Source: Verrucomicrobiota bacterium (GTDB lineage Bacteria; Verrucomicrobiota; Verrucomicrobiia; Verrucomicrobiales; Akkermansiaceae). From it: a DNA stretch of 64,000 bases. The translations under genes and the position numbers were made by a program. The notes below the pieces were generated by a model that saw only the letters and a program-made list of their open reading frames with translations, searched no databases and was not told where the DNA came from. The stretch is taken from contig JAQCFL010000002.1 of NCBI GenBank assembly GCA_027619375.1, positions 1,663 to 65,662 of the forward strand. Direction: 5' to 3'. This document shows positions 22,633 to 40,949 of the stretch, piece by piece; the stretch's first letter is position 1; the number at the start of each line of letters is the position of its first letter.

Positions 22633-23895
22633 ATGAAGGAACAACTCTTGCAAAGCCCGGTCTTCCACATGGCGGCCACACAGTTCGAACGGGTCGCGGA
22701 TTTCCTGGAGCTGGGCGAGGAGATCCGGGAGCGCTGCAAGTGGCCGAAGCGCCTGATCACGGTGACCATGCCGGTGCGGATGGATGACGGGCGCACGGAG
22801 GTCTTCTTCGGGCATCGGGTGCAACACCATCTTTCCCGGGGTCCGGTCAAGGGCGGCCTGCGCTATCATCCCTCGGTGGACCTCGGCGAGGTCGCGGCGT
22901 TGGCGATGTGGATGAATTGGAAGTGTGCGCTGATGCGGTTGCCGTACGGGGGGGCGAAGGGAGGCATCGCCTGCAATCCACGCGCGATGAGCGACGGGGA
23001 AAAGGAGCGTCTGACGCGGCGTTTTGCGATGGAAATGCTCCCGTTCATCGGGGAGGAGGTCGATGTGATGGCACCGGACATGGGGACCGACGAGCAGACC
23101 ATGGCGTGGATTGTGGATGTCTATTCGACCTACGCGGGGCACCTCGTTCCGGGCATTGTGACGGGGAAACCATTGGAGCTGCAGGGCTCCGCAGGGCGCA
23201 AGGCGGCGACCGGCCACGGGGTGGCCTTTTTGGCGAGCAGGGCCTTGAACAAGCTGGGCATCCAGGCGCCGGGGGCGACTGCGGTGATTCAAGGCTTTGG
23301 CAACGTGGGCTATTACACGGCGGAAACGATGAGCGGTTACGGAATCAAGGTCAATGGGATCTCCGACGTGACCGGGGCGATCTGGAATGATGGGGGACTG
23401 GAGATCCGGGCGCTGCACAATCATGTGCTGGAGACCGGCGGGGTGGCGGGATTCGGGGAAGCGGAGGCCATTGATCCCGGGGCGCTCCTCATGCAGGAAT
23501 GCGATGTGCTGGTGCCGGCGGCGGTGGAGCGGGTCATCACCAAGGACAATGCATCCGGTTTGCGATGCCGGGTCCTGGCGGAGGCGGCGAACGGACCGAC
23601 CACCCCGGAGGCCGATGCGATCATTGAAGAGCGGGGGGACATCTACCTGATCCCGGATGTTCTTTGTAACGCGGGGGGGGTCACGGTGTCCTACTTTGAG
23701 TGGGTGCAGAATCTGCAACGTTTCCAATGGGATGAGCGGGAGGTGTTGACCAAGTTGGAAACGATGCTGGAGGGGGCTTTCGAACGTTTTCAGCAATACG
23801 TGCGTGCCGAGAAGGTGTCTCATCGGATGGCTGCGTTGTTTCTGGGGATCCAGGAGGTGGCGCGGGTGAAACAAGTGCGGGGGTTGTTTCCATGA
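22633..23895 (+). CDS. gdhA: Glutamate dehydrogenase (Glu/Leu/Phe/Val dehydrogenase family)
   Basis: ATG at 22633 (alternative 22621) inside ORF 22075..23895. Motifs are KGGLRYHP, LPYGGAKGG (catalytic Lys region) and the Rossmann loop QGFGNVG. The upstream part of the ORF is antisense to the thioredoxin-like gene. Confidence 0.9.
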   Translation: MKEQLLQSPVFHMAATQFERVADFLELGEEIRERCKWPKRLITVTMPVRMDDGRTEVFFGHRVQHHLSRGPVKGGLRYHPSVDLGEVAALAMWMNWKCALMRLPYGGAKGGIACNPRAMSDGEKERLTRRFAMEMLPFIGEEVDVMAPDMGTDEQTMAWIVDVYSTYAGHLVPGIVTGKPLELQGSAGRKAATGHGVAFLASRALNKLGIQAPGATAVIQGFGNVGYYTAETMSGYGIKVNGISDVTGAIWNDGGLEIRALHNHVLETGGVAGFGEAEAIDPGALLMQECDVLVPAAVERVITKDNASGLRCRVLAEAANGPTTPEADAIIEERGDIYLIPDVLCNAGGVTVSYFEWVQNLQRFQWDEREVLTKLETMLEGAFERFQQYVRAEKVSHRMAALFLGIQEVARVKQVRGLFP

Positions 23896-24902
23896 GCGAG
23901 GCCATATCGAAACATCCCGGGGGAAGGGAGGTGCGCTTTTCGCGCTTTGGACCACCTGAGGAGGTCCTGGAAATCGGGGAACGGGAATTGCCGGAACCTA
24001 CTTCTGGACAAGCTCTTGTGCGGCTGCTGGCCAGCCCGGTGAATCCGGCCGACCTGAACATCGTGGAAGGCGTCTATGGGGTTCGACCGGAGCTGCCGGC
24101 CGTGCCCGGGATGGAGGGCTGCGGGGAGGTACTGCGCTGTCCCGGCGGGGAATTGGCGGTGGGTTCGCGGGTCATTTTTCTGCGCAAAGGGGGGGCCTGG
24201 GCGGAGGAGATGGTTTTGCCGACGGAGGATCTGATCGCGGTGCCGGAGGCCATCGATCCGGTGCAGGCGGCGATGCTGGGGGTGAATCCGCTGACGGCGC
24301 TGCGGCTCCTGGAGGGCTTTGTCGATCTGAAGCCCGGCGATTGGATCGTCCAGAATGCGGCCAACTCGAATGTGGGGCGTTGTGTCATCCAGCTGGCCCG
24401 GGAGCGGGGCGTATCTACGGTGAACCTCGTACGTCGGGAGAGCCTGCGGGAGGAGCTGCTGGGATTGGGGGCGAGCGTGGTCTTGTTGGATGATGAGGAA
24501 ATGGTGGCCAAGGCCCTGGAGGCCACGGGAGGCCGGCGTCCGGTGCTGGCCTTGAACGCGGTGGGCGGGGACAGCGCCCTGCGCCAGATGGATTTTCTGG
24601 AGCGGCGGGGGAGCCACGTCACCTATGGGGCGATGAGTCGGCAGAGCCTGAAGGTGCCGAACAAGTTCGTGATCTTCAAGGAGCTGACCATCACCGGATT
24701 CTGGATCACCAAGTGGCTGGAGGAGAGTGCCCGGGCGAAAATCGAGGAGTCCTATGTCCTTCTTTCCCAATTCGTCGTGGAGGGAAAGCTGGAGCAGGCG
24801 GTGGATGGAAGCTATCCGCTGGAGGAAGTCCGGGCGGCGTGTCGGCGGGCCGGGGAAGAGGGGCGGGGGGGGAAGGTGATCCTGGTTCCTCGAAGGGGTT
24901 GA
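23892..24902 (+). CDS. MDR-family zinc-independent enoyl reductase / quinone oxidoreductase-like protein
   Basis: 336 aa with the pattern LASPVNPADLNIVEGVYG...PGMEGCGEV and the nucleotide loop VQNAANSNVGRCVIQLA. It resembles 2-enoyl thioester reductase (MECR/Etr1)-type MDRs. There is an ATGA overlap with gdh at 23892-23895. Confidence 0.8.
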   Translation: MSEAISKHPGGREVRFSRFGPPEEVLEIGERELPEPTSGQALVRLLASPVNPADLNIVEGVYGVRPELPAVPGMEGCGEVLRCPGGELAVGSRVIFLRKGGAWAEEMVLPTEDLIAVPEAIDPVQAAMLGVNPLTALRLLEGFVDLKPGDWIVQNAANSNVGRCVIQLARERGVSTVNLVRRESLREELLGLGASVVLLDDEEMVAKALEATGGRRPVLALNAVGGDSALRQMDFLERRGSHVTYGAMSRQSLKVPNKFVIFKELTITGFWITKWLEESARAKIEESYVLLSQFVVEGKLEQAVDGSYPLEEVRAACRRAGEEGRGGKVILVPRRG

Positions 24903-24966
24903 GGGAGGGGAGAACCCGGCGGGAGGGCACCAAGTCGGTGGAAGGATGAGGCGCGCTTGAGCCTGC

Positions 24967-26742
24967 TCATGGGGCGTGGGGGCTGGAGCGGAGAGAGAGG
25001 AGGTGCTCGGCGAGGCCGAGGACCTCGGCATCGGTGAGAGTTTCGTGTCCCGGCATGTCCGTGCCGGGGAGGCCGAATTTGGCGATGCGGGCGAGGGTTT
25101 CGCGGAGCGGGGGACCGTTCGGGGCGGGGTTGCTGAAGAGGAAGGGGCCGGCGTTGAGGTTGGCAGGGGGGCGTTGGAAGTGGCGGGCGAGGGGGCCGTC
25201 GCCGCGGCCGGCTTCCCCATGGCAGGCGGCGCAGTGGAGTGCGAAGAGGGTCGCCCCTTCGGCGGGTGGAGGATCGGAGGGGGTCCAGGCGGCGATGGTT
25301 TCCAAACGGGAGGACCACTCTTCGGGAGTGGTGTTGGTGAGGAAGGCGATCAGGTCGGCGCCGCGGTCATCGTCCCAGAGCCGGAGGTAGGGGGGCATGA
25401 CGCTGCCGGGGCTGAGCAATTGGGGATGGAGGAAGTGGAGTTCCATCCATTTTGGGGAGCGGCGCAAACCGACCTGCAGCAGATCCGGTCCCTGTCTGCG
25501 GTTTCCAATCAGGACCGGGGCGTCCTGAAGGATCTTCGGGATGGATCGGCTGGGGCCCCAGAGCAACTCGTCGGCGGTGCCGGGACGCACGTAGCGGGAA
25601 TGGCAATGGATGCAGCCCTCGGAGAGATAGACGGCTTGGCCGCGGGAAACGGGGCTGGCATTGGTTGAGGGGGGCGTGGCGAGGCTCCAAGCGAGGAGCG
25701 CGGACAAGACCACGAGAACGACGGCCGGGTGTCTGCCGGGCAGTCTGAACCGGTGACAGAGCACGGCGGCCGCACCGAGCCAAACCGCGAAGACGAACCA
25801 AGGGGGGACGAGGTGGAGGTTTGCGGCCATGCCGACGCCGAGGGCGGAGCCGATCCAACCGGCGAGGCCGAAGAGTCGCGCGGCGAGGGGGAGCGCTTCG
25901 CGGCTGGTGCGGGCTCCGGAGAGGCAGCCGGGATAGACCACGAGGGCCACGGAATAGAGGGAGACTCCGAGAGGATAGAGCCAACCGGAGAGGGCGGCGA
26001 AGGCCGGTTGACCGACCCACTGCGAGGCGACCGAGAGCAGGGCGAGGGCGGGCAAGAGGACGCGGAGCAGCCAGCCCCGATCGAGAGCCAGGCCGGCGGC
26101 GAGGGCTCCGAAGAAATGGAGGGCGGCATTGCGCCAGAGCAGATCGCTGCCCCAGGTGGCCTTTTTCAGAACGGCGGTGTGTTGGATGATGTAGAAGGCG
26201 GCCGAGTCGAGCCACACGAGGGACAGGAAGAGGAACACGATGAACCAGAACTGGCGGGGGATGGTCGGGGTGGAGGCTGACTTTGGGGGACCGAAATCGT
26301 TGTTCCGCGGGACGGTGGGGACGAACACCGCAGCGAGCCCGGCGAGGAGCACCACGGCGCCGGTCTGCCACTGCCAGGTGGCTTGGAAGAAGGCGGAGAT
26401 ATTGCAGAAGGCATAGGCCAGACCGGTGCCGAGGCCTGCCACCAGTCCGGCGCGTCGGGGGGACACCGTTTGACGCAGGGTGCCGGCGAGGGTGACGAGA
26501 GCGGTGAAACCGCAGACGAGAAAGCCGATCCGCAGGAGGGTGCGAGCCCCGAAGGTTTCCACCAGGCGAGGGGTGAGGACACAGCCGAGGACGCCGCCCA
26601 GGCCCATGGCGGCCATGAGGATCTTCAGGCCGTGGCCGGCATCCTCTCCGAGGGCGCTTCCCTCCAGAAAAGCAAACTGCGCGAAGAGCCGGAAGTAGCC
26701 ATAGATCGCGGTGATGGCGAAGCCGGTGCGGAGCATGTTCAT
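24967..26742 (-). CDS. Fusion protein: MFS-like polytopic membrane domain + CcoO(FixO)-like mono-haem domain + second class-I cytochrome c domain
   Basis: The ATG at 26742 (MNMLRTGFAIT...) overlaps the upstream stop (ATGA). About 11 hydrophobic helices include the MFS-motif-A-like LTPRLVETFGARTLLRIG. Next comes CIHCHSRYVRP...GPDL...W..HF.HP...SPGSVMPPY, the CcoO signature as I recall it. The C-terminus has LFALHCAACHGEAGRGDG...GTDMP. The 157 upstream codons of ORF 24967..27213 were rejected as Arg/Pro-rich. Confidence 0.8.
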   Translation of the reverse strand: MNMLRTGFAITAIYGYFRLFAQFAFLEGSALGEDAGHGLKILMAAMGLGGVLGCVLTPRLVETFGARTLLRIGFLVCGFTALVTLAGTLRQTVSPRRAGLVAGLGTGLAYAFCNISAFFQATWQWQTGAVVLLAGLAAVFVPTVPRNNDFGPPKSASTPTIPRQFWFIVFLFLSLVWLDSAAFYIIQHTAVLKKATWGSDLLWRNAALHFFGALAAGLALDRGWLLRVLLPALALLSVASQWVGQPAFAALSGWLYPLGVSLYSVALVVYPGCLSGARTSREALPLAARLFGLAGWIGSALGVGMAANLHLVPPWFVFAVWLGAAAVLCHRFRLPGRHPAVVLVVLSALLAWSLATPPSTNASPVSRGQAVYLSEGCIHCHSRYVRPGTADELLWGPSRSIPKILQDAPVLIGNRRQGPDLLQVGLRRSPKWMELHFLHPQLLSPGSVMPPYLRLWDDDRGADLIAFLTNTTPEEWSSRLETIAAWTPSDPPPAEGATLFALHCAACHGEAGRGDGPLARHFQRPPANLNAGPFLFSNPAPNGPPLRETLARIAKFGLPGTDMPGHETLTDAEVLGLAEHLLSLRSSPHAP

Positions 26743-27161
26743 CCCTGTAAAACCCTTTCCAACAGTTGTTTGTGCAATCCGATGGCCTGGAGGCCGCCCA
26801 CCACGAGGTCGGTTGCGGCGACCGGGAGCCAGGCCGTCTCGAGGCTGCCGCGGGCCACGCTGAGGGCCACGAAAAGGGCCACGGCGCAGCGGGCCACGGC
26901 GGTGATGAGCCATTGCATGCGCCAGGCGGCGACCGCGTTGGCGTCGCGGGGGAGGCCGCCCACCAGAAAGTAGGAAAGACCGACGGAGAAGACGAAGACG
27001 CCGACCCACGAGAGGAAGATGTTGGGGCCTGCCGGTTCGCTGATTCCCATGAGGCGCAAGGTTTGCAGGGGGAGGAACAGGAGGAGGAGTCCGGTGAGGG
27101 AGTCCATCAGGCCGACGAGGCGCTGGGCCGGAAGAAGAAGTCTGGGAAACTTGTCTTGCAT
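26739..27161 (-). CDS. 140-aa four-helix membrane protein of unknown function
   Basis: Its ATG directly abuts the TAA of the upstream gene (27159-27164). There are four hydrophobic segments and no motif was recognised. Confidence 0.65.
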   Translation of the reverse strand: MQDKFPRLLLPAQRLVGLMDSLTGLLLLFLPLQTLRLMGISEPAGPNIFLSWVGVFVFSVGLSYFLVGGLPRDANAVAAWRMQWLITAVARCAVALFVALSVARGSLETAWLPVAATDLVVGGLQAIGLHKQLLERVLQG

Positions 27162-28424
27162 TTAATTGTTCGCTGCGGATTGAGGTTCGTGTGGCTTGAG
27201 GAGTCCGAGCCACCAGCGGGCGCTGACGATCAGGAGGACGAGGCCGCAGAGGAGGCGCAGGGTGTAGAGGCTCGTCTTGGTTGGGTTGGGGTGAAGGATC
27301 CAGGCGGGGTCGGCGGCTTCAAAGAGGCCGGCGCTTGCCATGAGCACGACGTAGCCGAGGGTGGCGCCGTTCCACCACCAGAAGCCCGTCGCCAAGGGCC
27401 GCGTCCCGCCGGTGAGGACCACGGCGAGGAAGAGCAGGAAGGTGCTGGTGAACCCGGCCATGGCGAAGTGGGCGTGCGCGACGAGGACGTTGGTGAATTT
27501 GGCGGCATCGAGCAGCCCCGGCAGGAAGGTGAGCCAGCCGGTGAGGATGAGCAGGGCGAGCCAGGCCAGGGAGGCGGAGAGCCAGCGGCGTTCCAGAGGG
27601 CTCCAGGAATAGCGTCGATAGAAGATCGGGAGGAGGGCGATCCAGGCGAGAAGGAGGCCGAGGCCAATCCATTGGGAGGGTTCGCGGTGACTGATCACGG
27701 TCCGCTCGAGGAAGGGAACGGCGGCGAGTTGGAGGCCGAAGACGATCCAATAGAGGGACTCTCGCCCCGCGCCTTCGGCCCTCCGCCGACCGAGGGAGCG
27801 GGGCACGAGGAGGAGCAGGAAGACGACGGACAAGCTGGAGCCGAGGAGGCTGGCCCCGGTCGGGCCGCCGCTCTCGGGGTTGACGGGAGGATAGACCTCC
27901 GGGCGGGCGGCGAGGGCGAGGAGCACCGGCACGGCGCCGAGGGCCAGGAGGCCAAGGAGATGCGCCTTGCCGCGGCGGCCGCGAAACCAGGCGGCGGCGA
28001 GGACGCCCCAAAGCAGGACCATGGCCCCGAGGAAGAAGCCGAGGCTGCGCCCGGACCAGTCCAGAAAGATCTTGCCGCTGGTCTGGCCATCCAGCCAGGC
28101 GAGGGAACCCGCCAGCAGGGCGGCGGACCAGGCCCAGATTGCCGTGAGGCCCCAGCTGGTGAGGCCGATGGCATCCACCCCGTAAAGCCGGAACAGCCAG
28201 GCGACCAAGGGGAGGCTGGTCCAGCCGAAGAGGTGCAGGTTCAGGTGCAGGGGCATCCAGCGTCCATAGGTCCAGGTGCCCAGCAGCCCGCCGCCGGTTG
28301 GGGCGACGAGGAGCAGGGCCAGGAGGAAACCCACGGCATTTGCGGCGACCAGCCAGAAGAAGGCATGCCTCAGGGCGGTCCTGATGGAAGCGTTCTCGGG
28401 CGGGAAATTGGGGGAACTCAACAT
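27162..28424 (-). CDS. cbb3 oxidase subunit I (CcoN)/NorB-like haem-copper-oxidase-superfamily membrane protein lacking recognisable CuB/FeB histidine ligands
   Basis: 420 aa, ~12 TM. GRWMPLHLNLHLFGW resembles the CcoN helix-II GRLRPLHTNAVIFAF. FTNVLVAHAHFAMAGF carries the helix-X HxH haem ligand pair. LYTLRLLCGLVLL resembles the CcoN C-terminus FYVIRLLGG. Only one His (H246) lies between residues ~160 and 316, where one His plus an HH pair is expected. These comparisons are from memory of family consensus. Confidence 0.7.
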   Translation of the reverse strand: MLSSPNFPPENASIRTALRHAFFWLVAANAVGFLLALLLVAPTGGGLLGTWTYGRWMPLHLNLHLFGWTSLPLVAWLFRLYGVDAIGLTSWGLTAIWAWSAALLAGSLAWLDGQTSGKIFLDWSGRSLGFFLGAMVLLWGVLAAAWFRGRRGKAHLLGLLALGAVPVLLALAARPEVYPPVNPESGGPTGASLLGSSLSVVFLLLLVPRSLGRRRAEGAGRESLYWIVFGLQLAAVPFLERTVISHREPSQWIGLGLLLAWIALLPIFYRRYSWSPLERRWLSASLAWLALLILTGWLTFLPGLLDAAKFTNVLVAHAHFAMAGFTSTFLLFLAVVLTGGTRPLATGFWWWNGATLGYVVLMASAGLFEAADPAWILHPNPTKTSLYTLRLLCGLVLLIVSARWWLGLLKPHEPQSAANN

Positions 28425-28425
28425 G

Positions 28426-29094
28426 TTAGGAGAGGATGCGGCCGTCCTTCATTTCCACGACCCGGTCACAGCGGTCGGCGAGGGAGCGGTCGTGGGTGGC
28501 CATGATGAGGGTGCGGCCGGCGCTTCTGACGAGATCGACGAGAAGGGCGAAAACCTGTTCGCGACTGTCCTCGTCGAGGGCCCCGGTGGGTTCGTCGGCG
28601 AGGATGAGTTGGGGATCGTTCATGAGGGCCCGGCAGAGGGCGGTGCGCTGGCGCTCCCCACCGGAGAGATCCTGGATGCGGTTTCCCAGTCTGTGTTGGA
28701 GTCCGGTGGCGGTGGTGAGGCGGGCGAGTCGAAGGCGGGCCTCACCCTTGGGAAGTCCTGCGGCGATGGCGGGAATCAGGCAGTTCTCGGTGAGGGTGAG
28801 GTCGGCGATGAGATTGTGGAGCTGGAAGACGAGTCCGATCCGGCTGCGGAGGAGGAGGGTGAGATCGCGGTCGCGGTGGAGGGATTGGCCGTCGTGGAGG
28901 ACCTGCCCCCTGGTGGGTTGATCCAGTCCGGCGATGAGATGGAGGAGGGTGGATTTGCCGCAACCGGAGGGTCCACAGATGGCGACGAGGCTGCCGCGTT
29001 GGACCTCGAGGTCGACCTCGTGGAGGACGGGGATTTTCCCGTTCTCGTAGCTCATGGAAACGCCACGGGTTTGCACTTGGGGTGGTTGGCTCAT
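28426..29094 (-). CDS. ABC transporter ATP-binding protein (MacB/LolD-type)
   Basis: 222 aa with Walker A GPSGCGKST, signature LSGGERQR, Walker B LILADEPT and an H-loop ATHD. Confidence 0.9.
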   Translation of the reverse strand: MSQPPQVQTRGVSMSYENGKIPVLHEVDLEVQRGSLVAICGPSGCGKSTLLHLIAGLDQPTRGQVLHDGQSLHRDRDLTLLLRSRIGLVFQLHNLIADLTLTENCLIPAIAAGLPKGEARLRLARLTTATGLQHRLGNRIQDLSGGERQRTALCRALMNDPQLILADEPTGALDEDSREQVFALLVDLVRSAGRTLIMATHDRSLADRCDRVVEMKDGRILS

Positions 29095-30203
29095 TCGAAT
29101 CGCAGGGCGTTGGCGGCGCGGATCCTCATGCCGTAGATGGCGGGGTAGAGGGCTCCGAGCATGCCGGTGAGGACGGCGAGGAAGACGACCACGCCGATCA
29201 TGGAGGGTTCGAGGTGGACCTCCACATAGCCCTGGAGGAAGGGCAGGGACTTGAGGAGACCGAGGGCGAGGCGGCTGAGGAGGATGCCGACCACCGCACC
29301 TAGCAGGGCCACGACGATGGACTCCCCGACGATGAGGCCGGCGATCTGCCAGCGGGAGAACCCGCAGACGCGGAGGATGGCGAGTTCGCGGATGCGGCCG
29401 AAGACGGCCATGATCATGGTGTTGGCGACGCTGAGCCCGCCGAGGAGGAAGGCGCAGCCGCCCACCACCCAGGCGGTGATTTTCAGGATGCGGAACTGGG
29501 AGTAGTTCTGGCTGAACTCCTCGTTTTCGAGGGCGGTGAGGTTTTCGTGATTGGTTTGCACGTAGTCCTTGAACTGTCGGCGTTGGTTTTCCTCCCGGAG
29601 TTTCACCATGACCACGGAGGCGACCCCCTCCTTTCGGAAGAAGCGTTGGGCGAGAGGGAGGGGCATGAAGACCCCGCCGTCTTCGAAGCCGTTGGCGGTC
29701 CGGATGACTCCGGCGACCTCGAACTCAGCTCGTCCGATCGGCACACGCTCCCCGGCACCAACCTTGAGGAAGGCTGCGGCCCGCTCCCCGAGGAGGACGC
29801 GTTCACTGTCGTTGGTGAACCGGTCGGAAGCACCCTGCAGCCATTCCGCGTCGCGGAGGCGGGCTGCCTCGGGGCCGACCCCGAAGCAGGTGATGACCGG
29901 GTTGTTCTCGCTGGAGACGATGCCGAAGAGGACCGCCTCGGCGTTCTGGACGAAGGGGAGGTCCTCAAACTCGGCGACCGTCTCCACCGGGACGTTGCTG
30001 AAGAAGAGGTCGGAGACGTTGCGTTCGAAGACGATCAGTTCGCTGTCGCTGCTAAGAATGCGTTCGAACATCCGGATCGCCCCGCCGAGCAGGGTCACCA
30101 CGCAAAGCATGGTGGCCACCCCGAAGGAGATACCAACCGCCCCGATGGTGGTGCGGATGGCGTGGCACCGGAGGTTGAGGAGGATGAGGCCGAGGAGGGA
30201 CAT
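29091..30203 (-). CDS. ABC transporter permease, FtsX/MacB-type with periplasmic core domain
   Basis: 370 aa with one N-terminal TM, a ~220-aa extracytoplasmic domain, then three C-terminal TMs (FtsX-like: RELAILRVCGFSRWQIAGLIVGES...). There is an ATGA overlap with the ATPase gene. Confidence 0.85.
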   Translation of the reverse strand: MSLLGLILLNLRCHAIRTTIGAVGISFGVATMLCVVTLLGGAIRMFERILSSDSELIVFERNVSDLFFSNVPVETVAEFEDLPFVQNAEAVLFGIVSSENNPVITCFGVGPEAARLRDAEWLQGASDRFTNDSERVLLGERAAAFLKVGAGERVPIGRAEFEVAGVIRTANGFEDGGVFMPLPLAQRFFRKEGVASVVMVKLREENQRRQFKDYVQTNHENLTALENEEFSQNYSQFRILKITAWVVGGCAFLLGGLSVANTMIMAVFGRIRELAILRVCGFSRWQIAGLIVGESIVVALLGAVVGILLSRLALGLLKSLPFLQGYVEVHLEPSMIGVVVFLAVLTGMLGALYPAIYGMRIRAANALRFE

Positions 30204-30206
30204 CGG

Positions 30207-30986
30207 TCAGCTCGCCACCGAGGTGAGGTGGGGGGTCTCGCGGGGTTGCATGGCGGGGACGGCCGTCCGGAGGCGATCGAGGAAGCGCCACTGAGCGGGG
30301 GAGCCGGGTAGCTGAGAGACCGTTTTGTCTCCCAGCCGGTTGAGGCGTTCGATCAGTTGCAGGGCACTCTGCGCACCGCCGGCGAGGACCAAATTCGGTC
30401 GACCGAGGGCCAGGTCCCGGCCGCCGGTCTTGCCGCTGGTGTCCACCGGGCCGACGAAGTCCTTGAGGTCGTCCGCGATCTGAAAGGCGAGACCGACGAA
30501 GAGGCAGTAGCGCTCGAGGAGCTGGATGAGGCGCGGGCTGCCCCCAGTGATGATGACCGGGAGGAGCGCGGCGAGCCGCAGGAGCGGGACGGTTTTCATT
30601 CGGGCGATGGCCAGAACGCCATGCGGTGACCGGGAGCTACGGCTATCATGCAGATCGCGGCTCTGGCCCCCGAGGAGACTGAAGACCCCGAGGGCTTGAT
30701 CGATGTAGCTGGTCGCCTTGAGGTGATCGGGCAGGCTCGCGAAGGCGATTCCCTCCCCAATGAGGGAGTAGGCCCGGGTGATCAGGGCGAGTCCGGCGAG
30801 GACCGCGGCGCTTTCACCGTGGGTCCGGTGGACGCAGGGTGCGTGCCGCCGGGTATCGGCGTCGTCCATGCAGGGCAGATCGTCGAAGATGAGGGAAGCC
30901 GTGTGGAAATACTCCACGGCGATGGCCAGTTTGAGGGCGTGATTTCTTTCCAGTCCTGCGGAGCGCCCCGAGGCGAAGCAGGCCAT
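30207..30986 (-). CDS. trans-Prenyl diphosphate synthase-like protein (FPP/GGPP synthase family); N-terminus apparently displaced into another frame
   Basis: The first Asp-rich motif FDDLPCMDDADTRR and the second IADDLKD are present, with GKTGGRDLALGRPN downstream. Only ~30 residues precede the first motif. Plausible N-terminal sequence (DDLRALREAFRTGFDDTTEGDPVLVASLAHVLAHPG) is encoded in a different frame at ~31005-31115. Confidence 0.65.
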   Translation of the reverse strand: MACFASGRSAGLERNHALKLAIAVEYFHTASLIFDDLPCMDDADTRRHAPCVHRTHGESAAVLAGLALITRAYSLIGEGIAFASLPDHLKATSYIDQALGVFSLLGGQSRDLHDSRSSRSPHGVLAIARMKTVPLLRLAALLPVIITGGSPRLIQLLERYCLFVGLAFQIADDLKDFVGPVDTSGKTGGRDLALGRPNLVLAGGAQSALQLIERLNRLGDKTVSQLPGSPAQWRFLDRLRTAVPAMQPRETPHLTSVAS

Positions 30987-31159
30987 GGCCCTGCCGAGGT
31001 GCCCGGGTGGGCGAGCACGTGGGCCAGGGAGGCGACCAGCACCGGATCACCTTCGGTGGTGTCGTCGAAACCGGTTCGAAATGCCTCGCGGAGGGCCCGG
31101 AGATCGTCCGGAGACGCTCTGGCTTTCGGAGTTGCGGGGTTGATGGATGGGACATGCGG

Positions 31160-31723
31160 TTAGCGGATGCTCCCTTTGAGGTTGAAGCGGATCGTGACGA
31201 TGGGATTCACGGTGAGGACGAGCAATTTGCGGATCTTGCCCAGTTTGAAATCCTGGTGATCGATGCGCACGGTGCCAGACACTTGGAGGTTGCTGCCGTC
31301 GCGGACAGTGGTCACCGGGAACTGGATGATTTTTCTGACTCCGTGGATGCGGAGGGTCCCCTTGGCCCAGGTGCTGCCATCTTTGGCGGTGGCGAAGCCG
31401 CTGAGATTGAAGCTGCCGGAGGGCATGGCGGCGTGTTCCAGCCACTTGAGCATTTCGTCGTCGCGCTTCACATCGCCGGTGGGAAGGTTTTTGAAGTCCC
31501 AGCTGAGATCGACGGTCTTCGGGGTGGCGGAGTTGGCGTCGCCGGTGATTTTGATCTTATACTTGGTTAGCTTGGCGGTGAAGTCGTGGCCGGTGGCTTT
31601 GACATCGACGAGGATGGCGCTCTTGGCGGGATCGACGACGAACTCGGCTGCTTGGAGCGGCTGAGCGAGGACTCCGAGGGCGAAGGCCAGGGAGAGGAAT
31701 GGGGGAGACAATGGTGATTTCAT
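31160..31723 (-). CDS. YceI-like periplasmic polyisoprenoid/lipid-binding protein
   Basis: 187 aa with a signal peptide (…ALGVLAQPLQA). F.VDPAKS.I...V.ATGHDFTAKL...G.L.IHGV....F...V... is the YceI beta-barrel pattern. Confidence 0.8.
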   Translation of the reverse strand: MKSPLSPPFLSLAFALGVLAQPLQAAEFVVDPAKSAILVDVKATGHDFTAKLTKYKIKITGDANSATPKTVDLSWDFKNLPTGDVKRDDEMLKWLEHAAMPSGSFNLSGFATAKDGSTWAKGTLRIHGVRKIIQFPVTTVRDGSNLQVSGTVRIDHQDFKLGKIRKLLVLTVNPIVTIRFNLKGSIR

Positions 31724-31928
31724 GATGGTTTGATGGGGATGGGTTCAAAGGAGGTTCCGGTGGGAACAGGGAGGTCCCGAGGGAGGGAGAAACACTGCCG
31801 CCGTAGAACGCACGGAAGCGGAGAGGGGGCCGGGCAGGCTCGAGGAAACGGCCCATGATGCCTGGACCCACGGGTGCAGACCCGCGGAAAGGTCACCGGC
31901 CGTGCGTCCTGCACGGGGGCCGAGGGGA

Positions 31929-32327
31929 TCAGAGCCGATAGACTCCGAAGAAGCTGCGCTCGGGAGCGGGAAGCGACAAGGCGGGGTCGGGCGGGGGCCG
32001 GATGGGGAGGTGGCCGGTGGCGGGATCCTGGAGAAGGGTGATGGACGATCCGATATCGCCGCAGAGCAGGGTTCCCGGGGCGAGTTTGCCATCCGCGGGC
32101 TCCTGATCCTCGGCAAGGTCAGCGACCTCTTCGACTTCCTGGTCGCAGTGGCAGGGAACGCCGGGGGTGTTGGGTGTCGAGAGCTGGTGGCAGTTGCCCT
32201 GAAGGGGGCGGGCTGCGGCCGAGGCATGAAGGTTGACCCCGAAGAGGGACATCACCTTGCACGGGCAGCTTGGCAAGATGATGCCGAACCATGCGATGAT
32301 CAGGGCGGTATTGCGGAAGAAAGCCAC
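31929..32327 (-). CDS. Hypothetical small protein with N-terminal hydrophobic helix and Cys/His clusters
   Basis: 132 aa: MAFFRNTALIIAWFGIILPSCPC...CHCDQE... It has strongly GC3-biased codons, unlike the overlapping plus-strand ORF 31902..32372. Confidence 0.5.
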   Translation of the reverse strand: MAFFRNTALIIAWFGIILPSCPCKVMSLFGVNLHASAAARPLQGNCHQLSTPNTPGVPCHCDQEVEEVADLAEDQEPADGKLAPGTLLCGDIGSSITLLQDPATGHLPIRPPPDPALSLPAPERSFFGVYRL

Positions 32328-32423
32328 AGCTGGTCGTTCGGAGTCGATTGTAACGGGGGATGTTCAAATTAAATTTTGCGCATTGCTGAAAAAAAGGGAG
32401 CTTCGGACGCCCCATCCCATGCC

Positions 32424-33380
32424 ATGGCCCGGAGATACGCGAACAACCATCCCATGCCCCGCCACGGGCCCCTGCAGATTTTGAAATGGAAGCTGGGGAT
32501 GTCCCGGCGGGAGGCCCCTGCCGTTCCTGATGCTCCGGACACACCGGCGGCGTGGATGGCGGTGGAGGAGTCGAGACTGGAGGCGCCGCCCATGTCCACC
32601 TGGCAGTTGACCTGGCTCGGGCATGCCTCGTGGCTTCTGCAACTGGGTGGGGCAAACCTGCTCATTGATCCGGTCTTTTCCGAATACTGTGCTCCGGTGC
32701 GCATCCCGAGCTTGCGGCGTCAGCAGGGTCCCGGCGTGCTGCCGGGGGGACTTCCCGGAATCGATGGGGTGTTGCTGACCCACAGCCACTATGATCATTT
32801 GGATCTGCCGACCTTGCGGAACCTCCCGGGAAATCCGCCACTGGTGGTGCCGGAGGGTCATCGGGAATGGCTGAGGGGCAAAGGCTTTGGGGACGTCACC
32901 GAGTTGGCTTGGGGCGACTCCTGTGCGCTCGGCAGGGGTCTCACCGTGCACGCCACCCCGGCGCAACATTTCACGGCCCGGACGCCGTTTGACCGTGACC
33001 GGGGGCATTGGTGTGGGTGGGTGGTGGAGGGCGGAGGGATGCGGATCTATTTCGCGGGAGACACGGGGTATGCACCGCTCTTCGGGGACATTGCGCGGCG
33101 GCATGCCGCGCTGGATCTGGCCGTGTTGCCGATTGGAGCCTATGCCCCGCGCTGGTTGATGCGTCCGATCCATTTGGATCCGGAAGAGGCGGTGCGGGCG
33201 CATCTGGAGCTTGGCCCGCGTTGTTCGGTGGCCTCGCATTGGGGGACCTTCCGTTTGACCGACGAGGCGCTGGGGGAGCCACCGATCTGGCTGGCCCGGG
33301 CCTGTGATGCTGCCGGGGTGGCGCGGAAGGACTTTCGGGTCCTGAAGGTGGGGGAGACGCTCAGCGGGGAGGAGGTCTGA
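32424..33380 (+). CDS. MBL-fold metallo-hydrolase (NAPE-PLD-like)
   Basis: Motifs are WLGHASWLLQLGG, LLIDPVF, the metal motif THSHYDHLD, and FAGDTGY. The start could be 32424 (ATG) or the track start 32376. Confidence 0.8.
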   Translation: MARRYANNHPMPRHGPLQILKWKLGMSRREAPAVPDAPDTPAAWMAVEESRLEAPPMSTWQLTWLGHASWLLQLGGANLLIDPVFSEYCAPVRIPSLRRQQGPGVLPGGLPGIDGVLLTHSHYDHLDLPTLRNLPGNPPLVVPEGHREWLRGKGFGDVTELAWGDSCALGRGLTVHATPAQHFTARTPFDRDRGHWCGWVVEGGGMRIYFAGDTGYAPLFGDIARRHAALDLAVLPIGAYAPRWLMRPIHLDPEEAVRAHLELGPRCSVASHWGTFRLTDEALGEPPIWLARACDAAGVARKDFRVLKVGETLSGEEV

Positions 33381-38204: not shown

Positions 38205-40949
38205 ATGAATCATGTTGTGAGCGGCGGGGATAGGCCCGGGCAAAAGGCGCTGCTTGGGGATCTTCGCGCCGCGTTCCACAAGGAGGAAGCGGCCGTTTTT
38301 ATGGACAACTGCCGGCGGGGAGCGGTGGTGGCCATTGCGGCAACCTTTGGAGGGGCGACCATGGACTGGGTCGTCTATCCGGGATTTGCGGAGCACTTTC
38401 TTTATGTCCGCACCGCTTTCGCCTTCTTTCTGGCGGGGATCCTGGCCCTGCTTTACTGGCAACCGGCGATGCGTTTCAGTCGCGTTCTGGGGCACATGAT
38501 CGTGCTGCTGCCGATCATCAACGTCTTGTGGATGATCGCGGCGTTGGGTGAAGACGAGTCGGCCTACTATGCCGGTCTGAACCTGGTGATGGTGGGTTCT
38601 GTGTTGCTGCTCCGCTGGAAGTTTACGGATTCGGTGATCAACTCGGTGCTTTGCTTGAGCGGCTATCTGAGCGTGGAGGCGGCGATCGGGACAAGCTTCG
38701 ACGTGGTGTTTCGGAATTCCTTCTTCATTTTGGTGACGGGGATCATTGCCTGTGTGGGGATTTATTTTTATAACAGGCTGAGGTTCAGTGAGTATTGTCT
38801 GCGGATTGAGGTGGAGGCGAACCGGGCGGAGCTGGCCCACAACCATGAGCGTTTGCGGGCCCTGGATGAGGCGAAGACCCGGTTTTTTGCGAACATCAGC
38901 CATGAGCTGCGGACGCCGTTGACGCTCATTCTGGCTCCCGTGGAGAAGCTCCGGGGGAGTGCTGCGGTGAAGGGGGACGAAACGCTCATGCAGATGGTGG
39001 ATTCCTTGGAGGACAATGGTTTACGTCTGCTTCGATTGATCAACGACTTGCTGGATTTGGTGAAGCTGGACACGGAGGAGATGAAGATGCGGCCGGAGCG
39101 TTTTCGGCCGGCAATTTTTCTCGAAGGGCTCGGTCGGAATCTGGGACCGATGGCGGATCGCAACACGGTGGCGCTGACCTGGAGTTCGAATGAAGCGGCC
39201 CAGCAGGAGGTGTATCTGGATCGGGACCGCCTGGAGAAGATCGTCCTGAACCTCGCAGTGAACGCCCTGAAATTCACTCCGCCCGGCGGGAGGGTGGAGA
39301 TGAAGGCGGATGTGGAGGAGAACACCCTGCGGTTGTCGGTCGCGGACACCGGGGAAGGGATGACCGGGGATCAGATCCGGAGTGCCTTCGAGCGATTCTG
39401 GCAGGCGGATTCCTCGGTGCGGCGCAAGCATCAGGGGGTGGGCATTGGCTTGGCCCTGGTGAAGAGCCTGACCGAGTCGATGGATGGCACGGTCGGGATC
39501 GAGAGCGAATTTGGGAAGGGGACGACCTTTAGCCTGACCATTCCGCTGGTGGCCGTGCCGGAGAAGGAGAGCGAGGCGGATGAGGGGGTGGAGGTCACGA
39601 GGCAGGATGCCTTTGACGAGCTGCACACGCGGGCGCGGCTGCAGGGGGCGGCGGTGGCCCCAACGGCGCGGGAGCCCCGCGAGTTGTTGTTGAGAAAGGC
39701 GGGGAGTCGTGCGCGGGGAGATCGGGAGCGTATTCTGATCGCGGATGACGAGGCGGGACTGCGGGCGTTCCTGCGAAGCGAACTGGAAGAGCTGGGTTGT
39801 GAGGTGGTCGAGGCGAAGGATGGGGCGGAAGCGTGGGAGTTGGCGCAGCGGATGCAGCCGAGCCTGGCGGTGTTGGACATGATGATGCCGGAAATGGATG
39901 GGATCACCCTGACCCGGAAACTTCGGGAGAGCGAAGGGACCTCCCAGCTGCCCATCGTGCTGGTGACGGCACGGGCCGATGATGCGTCGCGCATTCAAGC
40001 TCTGGAGGCTGGCGTCAGTGATTTCCTGACCAAGCCGTTCTCCACGGCGGAGCTGCGGGTGCGCATCGTCAATCTGCTGGACGGACAGCGCTACCAGCGT
40101 CAGTTGAACGTGAAGAACCGGGAGTTGGGGATCGCCTTGCAGGAGATCAAGGCGAACGAGGCGCGGCTGCTGCACGCCGAGAAGTTGTCCTCCCTGGGCC
40201 GGATGAGTGCGGGGATCGTGCATGAGGTGAACAACCCGCTCAACTACGCGAAAACGGCCCTGCATGCCTTGCGCATCTACGTGGACGATCTGCCCGAGGA
40301 GGAGCGGGAGGACTACATGGAGACGGTGGGGGATGCGGAGGAAGGAGTGGGTCGGGTCATTCGGATCATCAGCGACCTGCGTTCCTTCACGAAAGGGGAG
40401 ACCGCGCACCGCTTCGATGTGAGTCTGGGGACGGTGCTGGAGTCGGCGCGGCGTCTGGTGAGCCACGATTTGCAGGGAATTTCCTATGAAGCTGACCTTC
40501 CGGAAGGCTTGGAGGTGTCTGGAAATGACAATCAGTTGTGCCAGGTGTTCGTCAACCTGATGCAGAACAGTGCACAGGCGGTGGTGGCGGCGCGGAAGAG
40601 GGGAGAGGAGCCGACCATCGTGGTGAAGACCGGGAAGGAGCCCGATGGAAGGGTTTTTGTGTCGATCAGGGACAATGGTTGCGGAATCTCCGCGGAGGAT
40701 GTAGAGCATTTGTTCGACCCATTTTTCACGAAACGGGAAGTGGGCGAAGGAATGGGTTTGGGTTTGAGCATTTGCCACCGCATTCTAGAGTCTCACGGAG
40801 CCAGCATCGAGGTGACCAGCGAACTGGATCGATTCACGCAGTTCACCATTCACTTCCCCACCGAACCCGACGACGACGAAGAAGAAACAGCCGAGTCTCC
40901 GGAATCCTCCGGAACGGAGCACATGGAAGAAGCCAGCCGCATACAATGA
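38205..40949 (+). CDS. Membrane sensor hybrid protein: TM sensor + HisKA/HATPase + REC + second HisKA/HATPase (HK-REC-HK)
   Basis: 914 aa with ~6 N-terminal TM helices. The first H-box is FFANISHELRTPL with an ATPase (DTGEGM...GVGIGLALV...GKGTTFSL). The REC domain is ILIADDE...VLDMMMPEMDG...LTKPF. The second H-box is GIVHEVNNPLN with an ATPase (RDNGCGI...GMGLGLSI). Confidence 0.9.
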   Translation: MNHVVSGGDRPGQKALLGDLRAAFHKEEAAVFMDNCRRGAVVAIAATFGGATMDWVVYPGFAEHFLYVRTAFAFFLAGILALLYWQPAMRFSRVLGHMIVLLPIINVLWMIAALGEDESAYYAGLNLVMVGSVLLLRWKFTDSVINSVLCLSGYLSVEAAIGTSFDVVFRNSFFILVTGIIACVGIYFYNRLRFSEYCLRIEVEANRAELAHNHERLRALDEAKTRFFANISHELRTPLTLILAPVEKLRGSAAVKGDETLMQMVDSLEDNGLRLLRLINDLLDLVKLDTEEMKMRPERFRPAIFLEGLGRNLGPMADRNTVALTWSSNEAAQQEVYLDRDRLEKIVLNLAVNALKFTPPGGRVEMKADVEENTLRLSVADTGEGMTGDQIRSAFERFWQADSSVRRKHQGVGIGLALVKSLTESMDGTVGIESEFGKGTTFSLTIPLVAVPEKESEADEGVEVTRQDAFDELHTRARLQGAAVAPTAREPRELLLRKAGSRARGDRERILIADDEAGLRAFLRSELEELGCEVVEAKDGAEAWELAQRMQPSLAVLDMMMPEMDGITLTRKLRESEGTSQLPIVLVTARADDASRIQALEAGVSDFLTKPFSTAELRVRIVNLLDGQRYQRQLNVKNRELGIALQEIKANEARLLHAEKLSSLGRMSAGIVHEVNNPLNYAKTALHALRIYVDDLPEEEREDYMETVGDAEEGVGRVIRIISDLRSFTKGETAHRFDVSLGTVLESARRLVSHDLQGISYEADLPEGLEVSGNDNQLCQVFVNLMQNSAQAVVAARKRGEEPTIVVKTGKEPDGRVFVSIRDNGCGISAEDVEHLFDPFFTKREVGEGMGLGLSICHRILESHGASIEVTSELDRFTQFTIHFPTEPDDDEEETAESPESSGTEHMEEASRIQ

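Follow-up and report, generated by a model that had tools for sequence, protein, structure and literature searches.

The window analysed here is the whole 64,000-nucleotide stretch of contig JAQCFL010000002.1 (positions 1,663 to 65,662) from a Verrucomicrobiota bacterium of the Akkermansiaceae (GenBank assembly GCA_027619375.1), and its region 24967-31723 holds seven open reading frames (ORFs), all on the minus strand (Table 1). They encode a YceI-family protein, a prenyl diphosphate synthase, the permease and ATPase of an ATP-binding cassette (ABC) transporter, a CcoN-like haem protein with 12 transmembrane (TM) helices, a small membrane protein (the 4-TM protein), and a fusion of a major facilitator superfamily (MFS) domain, a CcoO-like domain and a cytochrome c domain. 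We refer to these genes together as the module. That it is a conserved, undescribed cell-envelope system of hundreds of species, mainly Acidobacteriaceae and Verrucomicrobiota, is well supported, and we are highly confident of the architectural statements made below about the module as a whole.

Table 1. Genes, gene parts and protein domains of the module, in window coordinates.
Feature	Coordinates	Strand	Basis
YceI-family periplasmic lipocalin-like protein, 187 aa, N-terminal signal peptide	31160..31723	-	Pfam YceI
Displaced 5' part of prenyl synthase gene	30987..31159	-	YceI frame, no canonical start codon
Trans-prenyl diphosphate synthase body, 259-aa ORF, CrtE/GGPP-synthase-like, without N-terminal region I	30207..30986	-	polyprenyl_synt
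FtsX/MacB-type permease (type VII ABC, LolC/E-like) with periplasmic core domain, 370 aa	29091..30203	-	MacB_PCD + FtsX
ABC ATPase, LolD/MacB-like, 222 aa	28426..29094	-	ABC_tran
CcoN-like 12-TM two-haem protein without CuB site, 420 aa	27162..28424	-	Fold, profile
Small 3-4-TM membrane subunit, 140 aa, no known family	26739..27161	-	No Pfam/NCBIfam match
MFS-fold domain of fusion protein, residues ~1-331, one N-lobe helix short	25750..26742	-	Foldseek
CcoO/FixO-like mono-haem c domain of fusion protein, residues 367-460, CIHCH, Met449-Pro450	25363..25644	-	Pfam FixO
C-terminal class-I cytochrome c domain of fusion protein, residues 494-584, CAACH, Met563-Pro564	24991..25263	-	Pfam Cytochrom_C

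An earlier note on this DNA, made from the letters alone, had described a translationally coupled seven-gene operon. Its seven ORFs and the five junctions that it listed all match base by base. The synthase TGA is followed by a 3-nt spacer (CCG, 30204-30206) and the permease ATG (junction 30201-30209), permease and ATPase overlap by ATGA (29091-29094), and ATPase and CcoN-like gene meet as TAA-C-ATG (28422-28428, with the 1-nt spacer at 28425). The CcoN-like TAA directly abuts the ATG of the 4-TM gene (27159-27164), which in turn shares an ATGA with the fusion gene (26739-26742). The five junctions thus stand, but there is no clean coupled junction between YceI and synthase, since in this genome the start of the synthase gene is displaced into another frame by a frameshift. 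A sigma-70 promoter scan of 24600-32500 returned no promoters, and a scan of the same interval for intrinsic terminators gave a count near expectation.

Synteny was assessed by tblastn of the window proteins against 89 fetched loci, 68 of which were complete, i.e., contained the whole cluster and at least 1.5 kb on each side. The synthase, permease, ATPase, CcoN-like, 4-TM and fusion genes are all collinear in 68 of the 68 complete loci, a YceI gene is adjacent in 66, and a response regulator/kinase pair is adjacent in 55. Recurrence of the neighbourhood, which the earlier note had left to be checked, is therefore clear for the six core genes, and the case that it is not conserved in related genomes clearly fails. 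The gene content given in that note is confirmed as well, but as a rule the unit has a CusRS-like two-component system in addition. The position of YceI varies: Verrucomicrobia have it upstream, and in Acidobacteria it follows immediately downstream of the fusion gene.

Among 185,579 species, each represented by one genome, a scan located 362 stretches that encode a relative. Acidobacteriaceae account for most of them (Terracidiphilus, Granulicella, Edaphobacter modestus DSM 18101, Occallatibacter savannae AB23) and Verrucomicrobiota for many (Akkermansiaceae, Verrucomicrobiaceae, Luteolibacter); a few are in other bins. One divergent member (loci L086/L087) has all parts and the regulator on one strand with overlapping genes. 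Searching the literature by keyword, we found neither a CuB-less CcoN family nor this gene combination, in agreement with the earlier note's statement that no system of this kind has been described.

Haem proteins without a second metal site

The 420-aa CcoN-like ORF of the window is P0001 at 100% identity (NCBI locus tag O3A92_00450), which comes from a Verrucomicrobia metagenome-assembled genome and so bears out the PVC host assumed in the earlier note. It has no Pfam match at E ≤ 0.1, and hence none to COX1 (PF00115); some of its homologues carry faint precomputed COX1 matches. A single-sequence PDB search gave nothing useful, and a family profile gave weak full-length matches to cbb3 CcoN chains (8smr_E, E 1.9e-4; also 9g6b_A and 3mk7_A). 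The AlphaFold (AF2) model of the protein (pLDDT 90.5) has the 12 TM helices that had been assigned from the letters, and its top Foldseek matches are CcoN chains (8smr_E and 3mk7; E 2-4e-9, TM-score 0.68-0.70, 15-16% identity), followed by NorB of the nitric oxide reductase that depends on cytochrome c (cNOR; 4xyd, 3o0r) and then ba3.

Residue conservation was counted over 103 full-length representatives. The haem-ligand His residues are kept: H60 in TM2 (102/103) and the TM10 HxH pair H317 (103/103) and H319 (100/103), which align to CcoN H60, H345 and H347. The CuB triad, for which P. stutzeri H207 (TM6) and H257 and H258 (end of TM7) served as reference, is absent. There is no His at residues 180-210, where CcoN H207 aligns to Ala191 or Pro188 in TM6; near the end of TM7, position 246 is His in 66/103 and Asn in 32, and position 247 is His in 41/103. 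TM7 also has no conserved Tyr column that could supply the cross-linked active-site Tyr (position 225 is Tyr in 7/103). An FeB site of the nitric oxide reductase (NOR) type, which has three His (or two His and an Asp) and a Glu near the high-spin haem, is absent by the same columns, and no Glu is conserved in TM6-TM8. Two candidate identities were rejected on these counts: a canonical cbb3 oxidase, because the CuB and Tyr columns are absent, and a NOR, because the family has no FeB ligands.

The conserved ionisable residues (R55, H60, K118, D/E122, K309, H317, H319, E369 and R390) all lie in the periplasmic third of the protein or in periplasmic loops, and the cytoplasmic halves of the helices conserve only tryptophans. 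Because of this distribution, the protein has no conserved proton channel from the cytoplasm. With the CuB His triad, the catalytic Tyr and such a channel all missing, the cluster does not encode a cbb3 oxidase. In the Acidobacteriaceae clade (alignment A1; loci L004-L080), Leu or Phe takes the place of the low-spin haem ligand H319. A nearby residue, Met322, which 92/103 representatives conserve, may be a substitute ligand where H319 is lost.

A word-indexed search found more than 750 relatives of the CcoN-like protein. In an exhaustive profile search of 1.84 billion cluster representatives, no more than 488 reached E ≤ 1e-3, and 214 reached E ≤ 1e-30, which makes the family a compact one that stays apart from the very large canonical CcoN/COX1 families. 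The CcoN-like protein has a haem-copper oxidase (HCO) fold with the haem ligands kept and the second metal site lost, and it falls outside the described HCO families. We regard the family as an offshoot, without copper, of the C-family/cNOR branch within the HCO superfamily. The earlier note's description of a degenerate cbb3-like haem module without CuB ligands is borne out by both the alignment and the structural match to the CcoN fold.

Two groups of known enzymes show how far this offshoot has moved. The cbb3 oxidases, CcoNO(Q)P (P. stutzeri 3MK7, P. aeruginosa 8SMR), share with the module the 12-TM subunit-I fold, the TM2 His and the TM10 HxH; D/E122 aligns with the loop Glu region of CcoN, and both systems have a CcoO-type mono-haem c partner and a further cytochrome c domain. 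At 15-16% identity, however, the module protein lacks the CuB His residues, the cross-linked Tyr and a conserved cytoplasmic proton path. The module also has its CcoO fused behind an MFS domain, carries an extra 4-TM gene between N and O, is obligately linked to synthase, ABC and YceI genes, and is not induced at low O2 (see below). The NORs (cNOR NorBC, eNOR, sNOR, gNOR and nNOR) resemble the module in having an HCO fold without the catalytic Tyr and a cytochrome c partner, and cNOR likewise has no proton channel, but all of them keep a second metal site of three His (one replaced by Asp in gNOR) and a Glu (PMC11214002), a site that the module family has lost altogether. In a 2024 survey of the superfamily, gNOR was the first HCO family found to replace even one active-site His (PMC11214002).

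The 140-aa 4-TM protein has no Pfam or NCBIfam match. Its gene is always between the CcoN-like and fusion genes, and its conserved residues include D20, T23, G24, R91 and D118. In P0243, P0267 and P0338 it is fused to the C-terminus of the CcoN-like protein, and because of these natural gene fusions the sequences suggest that the two proteins form one complex. Such fusions are 561-608 aa long, and one call of 1130 aa joins all three haem-module genes, with a middle part that is apparently out of frame (P0243, P0267, P0338 and P0249; loci L086-L088).

The last ORF (591 aa) is one of many ~600-aa proteins that form a large family of identical architecture, every member of which has CcoO fused to MFS and cytochrome c domains. 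Its FixO domain scores 75.3 bits against a cutoff of 29.6, with only profile positions 52-145 of 219 matched, and C377, C380, H381, M449 and P450 are invariant in 24 sequences. The C-terminal domain scores 56.4 bits with Pfam Cytochrom_C and 39.8 bits with Cytochrome_CBB3, and C504, C507, H508, M563 and P564 are invariant. For the N-terminal domain, Pfam MFS_1 is marginal (2/24 members at E about 0.24); Foldseek matches it to 6hcl/6g9x (SfMCT; E about 1.5e-5, target TM-score 0.53-0.59) and also to VMAT, OxlT and NarK. Its invariant polar set is Q22, D179, Q187, R204, N205, H209, Y256, S261 and Y263. Fold and profiles thus agree with the three-part fusion that had been read from the letters, and the earlier note's other domain assignments are likewise upheld by the Pfam and NCBIfam profiles and by structure comparison.

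One MFS protein is known to serve cbb3 biogenesis: CcoA, a copper importer for cbb3 assembly (PMC5829832). The module likewise sets an MFS fold beside CcoN- and CcoO-type genes, but CcoA has two defining motifs, the helix 7 MXXXM and the helix 8 HXXXM, and the corresponding module consensus is LVWLDSAAFFIIQH and LWRNAAVHLxxA. With both motifs absent from the family consensus, a CcoA-like copper-importing role for the domain was rejected.

Genes published as cbb3 oxidase in Acidobacteria

The haem trio (CcoN-like, 4-TM and fusion) has been in the literature under another name. Trojan et al. (2021) described "cbb3 operons" in two Acidobacteria, Terriglobus roseus KBS 63 (Terro_4248, ccoN; Terro_4249, an unidentified cco gene; Terro_4250, ccoO) and Acidobacterium capsulatum (ACP_0885, 0887 and 0888) (PMC8407424). 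The published order of N, unidentified gene and O is that of the module and is unlike ccoNOQP. The published quantitative PCR (qPCR) primers point the same way. Those for T. roseus map inside the CcoN-like genes of six acidobacterial loci with at most 4-5 mismatches per 20-mer, at a spacing of exactly 283 bp, which is the published amplicon length, and they translate to LVIIAI and LCWWIV, both motifs of the CcoN-like family. For A. capsulatum, the reverse primer translates to MAMAGF, which matches the TM10 motif of that family exactly, and the pair maps 341 bp apart, vs 338 bp reported. Because of gene order and primer mapping, Terro_4248-4250 and ACP_0885-0888 can be assigned, on sequence grounds, to the copper-less CcoN-like family.

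This assignment bears on a published puzzle. An earlier paper had used the same genes as the basis for proposing these Acidobacteria as microaerobes (PMC5900883). In both strains the genes were later found to be barely expressed and down-regulated at nanomolar O2, with the A. capsulatum trio going from ~13-23 transcripts per million (TPM) at 10 µM O2 to ~1 TPM at nanomolar O2, and Trojan et al. asked whether the enzyme had lost its function (PMC8407424). Membership in a copper-less family explains why induction is missing. A microaerobic oxidase would show the reverse of the A. capsulatum pattern, which is compatible with a stress function linked to O2.

The names are propagated in databases, where JGI lists the products of family members as "cytochrome c oxidase cbb3-type subunit 1" and "subunit 2". 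Literature searches for the locus tags ACP_0883-0888 and Terro_4248/4250 returned no papers, and a paper on the Granulicella trace-metal proteome mentions none of the module genes. The claim of an undescribed system thus holds for the combination, which is new, but not for the CcoN-like/4-TM/fusion trio, which had already been published, misnamed, as the "cbb3 oxidase" of model Acidobacteria.

Lipid genes, regulator and other neighbours

The YceI protein scores 61.9 bits with Pfam YceI (cutoff 23.7; residues 28-183), and its NCBI name is YceI family protein. Judged by eye, it and a ~150-aa protein that adjoins some clusters both have Sec-type signal peptides without a lipobox Cys, and a cluster-encoded lipoprotein cargo was rejected for that reason. 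The permease scores above threshold with Pfam MacB_PCD (69.9 bits) and FtsX (57.1 bits), as does the ATPase with ABC_tran (120 bits). Their best NCBIfam matches are lolCE over the full length (73.7 bits vs a cutoff of 362.45) and LolD (209.6 bits vs 307.75); orthology to LolC/E and LolD is not indicated, as neither equivalog cutoff is reached. By sequence, LolCDE appears to be the closest relative of the cluster's ABC transporter.

The synthase matches polyprenyl_synt with 121 bits over profile positions 37-220 of 251, and its best NCBIfam matches are FPP synthase and CrtE. In the window, its first Asp-rich motif (FARM) is DDLPCMDD and its second (SARM) is DDLKD, within IADDLKD. Family-wide, the FARM is HTAS-L-x-F-DDLPxMD(N/D)-xxx-RRG, with the two-residue insertion typical of bacterial short-chain prenyl synthases. 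Under the chain-length rules for trans-prenyltransferases, an aromatic residue at position -5 gives FPP, and small residues give GGPP or longer. Across 80 related loci, position -5 is Ala in 78 and Ser in 2 and position -4 is Ser in all 80, so the product is probably C20 (GGPP) or longer.

Intact synthase homologues have 304-317 aa, and the ORF of the window has only 259. The first ~50 codons lie in the YceI frame, and the frame switches within a CCCGGG run near 31001-31007. The displaced 5' part translates as '...DDLRALREAFRTGFDDTTEGDPVLVASLAHVLAHPG', which aligns to residues 34-52 of the intact 315-aa homologue in locus L002, and the ATG of the 259-aa ORF falls after the IPP-binding region I Arg (Gx[FL][IV]RA). 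The frameshift is reproducible. The identical 259-aa ORF is present on two contigs, and NCBI protein accessions run consecutively from YceI to permease in two metagenome-assembled genomes (MAGs; MDA0765283/282 and MDA1005277/276), leaving no accession for the synthase between them; PGAP treats the gene as a pseudogene. Because the same broken ORF recurs on two contigs and lacks an NCBI protein in two independent MAGs, it is probably a real pseudogene and not an assembly error.

The fusion gene of the window is damaged too. Its MFS domain is short by ~27-32 residues, i.e., one N-lobe helix that all 23 aligned homologues possess (alignment columns ~108-140; window ~26480-26520, fusion residues ~75-85). 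Its loss would leave 12 helices instead of 13, which should disturb the topology. The module copy in the window is probably decaying or damaged.

The two-component pair appears to be CusRS/CopRS-like. In related loci its best NCBIfam matches are TIGR01386 (178-228 bits vs 292.55) and TIGR01387 (238.6 vs 279.2), below the curated cutoffs of both families. In the window, a search for a two-component system, the ~150-aa protein and YdjM found nothing adjacent to the cluster. The sole match to the regulator queries is a distant relative 6.5 kb away, a hybrid sensor kinase/response-regulator ORF at 38205-40949.

Other genes accompany the module in a minority of loci. A secreted protein of ~150-160 aa adjoins the cluster in 16 Verrucomicrobia loci (L002:11515-11967, L085:13136-13624 and 14 others); it has no Pfam or NCBIfam match and carries a conserved motif, YVANIxGMPGIGRxFA. 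A YdjM-family gene is near the cluster in five loci, and a CarboxypepD_reg/OMP beta-barrel gene (TonB-dependent-receptor-like) in seven (L001:1846-5178, L083:1-3185 and other acidobacterial loci), L001 being one of the rare loci without a YceI gene within reach. In two Verrucomicrobia loci the gene directly downstream of the fusion gene encodes a chorismate-binding enzyme (Pfam Chorismate_bind, MenF/PabB-like), and a third locus has such a gene nearby (L089:5346-6422, L009:12649-13659, L005:3-509). As a quinone connection this MenF-like neighbour is a weak hint, found in only two or three loci, too few to use.

In the window itself, the cluster is flanked by two genes unrelated to the module: a convergent Zn-dehydrogenase-family gene (23892-24902, plus strand) and a divergent metallo-beta-lactamase-fold gene (32376-33380, plus strand). 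The latter is also found upstream of YceI in another Verrucomicrobia locus (L084:3201-4196), which is probably lineage synteny outside the module. The module copy of Verrucomicrobiaceae bacterium 227 (locus L002, CP144260.1) is on a 423-kb plasmid, where its neighbours are an RND efflux pump of the CusB/CzcB type and an outer-membrane factor. The module also occurs in single Rhodanobacteraceae, Acetobacteraceae and Thermodesulfobacteriota bins. Plasmid copy and scattered bins suggest horizontal transfer or mis-binning; tblastn against a plasmid collection gave no match.

What the module may do

We tentatively propose, as the most likely of several readings, a cytochrome-c-fed periplasmic haem module that acts on a prenyl-lipid cargo carried by YceI. 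Periplasmic electron donors would feed the two c haems, an entry route suggested by analogy with cbb3 and cNOR and by the invariance of both c-haem motifs and their Met ligands. From the c haems, electrons would reach haem b and, after it, a haem b3-like site without CuB; this site would be accessible from the periplasmic or outer-leaflet side alone, and no proton channel would lead to it from the cytoplasm. The substrate at this site would be a prenyl-derived lipid, either a short-chain quinone or an oxidised/peroxidised isoprenoid, instead of O2 or NO. A prenyl lipid is favoured because in essentially every locus the haem genes are linked to those for synthase, extractor and lipocalin.

The lipid tail would be made in the cytoplasm by the dedicated synthase, and the lipid moved to the outer leaflet, possibly by the MFS domain. 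There the Lol-like ABC transporter would extract it and hand it to YceI, as LolCDE hands lipoproteins to LolA, and the whole would serve as a regulated envelope redox or antioxidant system, a more elaborate functional counterpart of the BcnA-LcoA pair described below. The earlier note had suggested that the pump loads YceI and that the haem proteins exchange electrons with the cargo; by analogy this is a reasonable mechanism, and it is consistent with the near-obligate linkage. O2-dependent expression and a regulator of the CusRS/HprRS family fit an oxidant-linked role. For electrons of cytochrome c level, peroxyl or hydroperoxide species are also better suited as acceptors than ordinary quinones.

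Three known systems offer partial parallels, of which the first is the closest in function. In Burkholderia, the YceI-family lipocalin BcnA and the cytochrome b561 LcoA protect against lipid peroxyl radicals; more generally, YceI-family lipocalins bind UQ-8 or polyprenyl chains and act with a membrane cytochrome against such radicals, and lipocalin-bound ubiquinone has been proposed as the redox carrier of BcnA-LcoA (PMC9113575). The module, like BcnA-LcoA and YceI-YceJ, ties a YceI lipocalin genetically to a membrane haem protein, and the proposed roles share redox chemistry on an isoprenoid quinone bound by the lipocalin, which would quench lipid peroxyl radicals in the envelope. The module differs in that its haem partner is an HCO-like/CcoO-like four-haem complex, with no b561 domain in the cluster, and in that it brings its own synthase and Lol-like ABC transporter, together with an MFS domain and a two-component regulator.

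The second parallel is with the type VII transporters, LolCDE-LolA and MacB. Here too there is an FtsX/MacB_PCD permease with a LolD-like ATPase, and the module likewise encodes a periplasmic beta-barrel carrier with a hydrophobic cavity. However, its scores are far under the Lol equivalog cutoffs, its carrier is YceI instead of LolA, and it encodes no lipoprotein. The third is the Listeria locus for flavin-based extracellular electron transfer (DmkA/DmkB), which resembles the module in encoding its own polyprenyl synthase for a dedicated quinone. That locus also has the UbiA-type prenyltransferase DmkA, an NADH dehydrogenase and flavinylated PplA, which the module lacks.

Several points weigh against this proposal. 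The cluster encodes no UbiA/MenA-type prenyltransferase, so a quinone cargo would need housekeeping enzymes. With electrons at the level of cytochrome c, the reduction of ordinary quinones is unfavourable, and only peroxyl or hydroperoxide species could be reduced. The sensor domain of the kinase has no conserved His, Met or Cys motif and no recognisable ligand or metal motif. In Acidobacteriaceae the low-spin haem site may differ, because the second TM10 His is replaced. Finally, since in the window the synthase is frameshifted and the MFS domain truncated, the lipid arm can be dispensed with, or else this copy is dead.

The haem trio could instead work without copper as a terminal reductase or detoxifier, its target being H2O2, O2, NO or some other small-molecule oxidant, with the MFS domain moving substrate or product and with synthase, ABC transporter and YceI supplying a lipid cofactor or helping assembly. 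We consider this rather unlikely, though several points favour it: haem b/b3 ligands and CcoO-type electron input are kept, the nearest structural relatives are cbb3 and cNOR, and the MFS fold matches include the anion exchangers NarK and OxlT. The fall in expression of the A. capsulatum trio with O2 would suit it, as would the CusRS/HprRS-family regulator, given that E. coli HprRS responds to oxidants. However, there is no second metal site (of the three His that CuB or FeB needs, one at most is left, and that only partly conserved), the catalytic Tyr and the Glu cluster are absent, and the linkage of synthase, Lol-like extractor and YceI in essentially every locus would be left unexplained.

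Export or biogenesis of an isoprenoid lipid destined for the outer membrane or surface is a distinctly less probable role. The lipid would pass from synthase to MFS flippase to Lol-like ABC transporter to YceI, and the haems would modify it in transit. The MFS fold includes lipid flippases, the synthase is dedicated and co-inherited with the cluster, and the logic of the components parallels LolCDE to LolA; YceI proteins, moreover, hold polyprenyl chains (PMC9113575). However, no transferase, cyclase or outer-membrane acceptor is conserved (the TonB-type barrel is near a few loci only), expression in cultured strains is very low, and a lipid exporter would not explain the need for a four-haem electron chain.

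A copper or heavy-metal stress or homeostasis module under CusRS/CopRS-type control, with the MFS domain acting like the importer CcoA, is very improbable. In its favour are the best matches of the adjacent kinase and regulator to heavy-metal sensor families, the plasmid-borne copy beside the RND pump, and the known service of MFS proteins in cbb3 biogenesis (PMC5829832). Against it stand the sub-cutoff two-component scores, the missing CcoA motifs, a CcoN-like protein with no copper site to serve, and the lack of any metal-binding domain in the cluster; a metal-sensing kinase was rejected on the motif-free sensor domain described above.

An ordinary cbb3-type (C-family) oxidase operon with unrelated neighbours, which the earlier note had raised as the case against itself, is almost certainly wrong: JGI/NCBI names, a FixO score above the Pfam threshold and the CcoN-like fold speak for it, but it is already contradicted by the absence of the CuB His triad, the cross-linked Tyr and a COX1 match, by a family profile that separates its 488 proteins from canonical CcoN, by the N, unidentified gene, O order (not N then O), by the lack of low-O2 induction in T. 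roseus and A. capsulatum, and by neighbours that are conserved and so not unrelated.

The prenyl-lipid reading has a broader form: a copper-free HCO branch was recruited, together with a synthase, an MFS flippase, a Lol-like extractor and YceI, into a new periplasmic lipid-borne redox system, whose cargo, an isoprenoid or quinone, would after synthesis and export be carried in the periplasm and receive cytochrome c electrons for its reduction or repair. This is doubtful. There is a substantial chance that the module is a new kind of envelope system.

A compact HCO-fold family that has wholly lost its catalytic metal site is a new branch of a well-studied superfamily. The 2024 survey treated replacement of a single active-site His as unprecedented (PMC11214002), and the module family goes further. 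There is also a practical consequence: the JGI and NCBI names, which present the trio as cbb3 subunits I and II, should be corrected, and ccoN/ccoO orthology calls should not be used as markers of high-affinity respiration in metagenomes rich in Acidobacteria or Verrucomicrobia. Cultured hosts exist, namely T. roseus KBS 63, A. capsulatum, Edaphobacter modestus DSM 18101 and Occallatibacter savannae AB23. The linkage of synthase, Lol-like extractor, YceI and four haems points to an undescribed envelope process with a carried isoprenoid lipid. If the proposal is true, a lipid-borne redox system is widespread in soil Acidobacteria and in freshwater and soil Verrucomicrobia, where it has been miscounted as a high-affinity oxidase.

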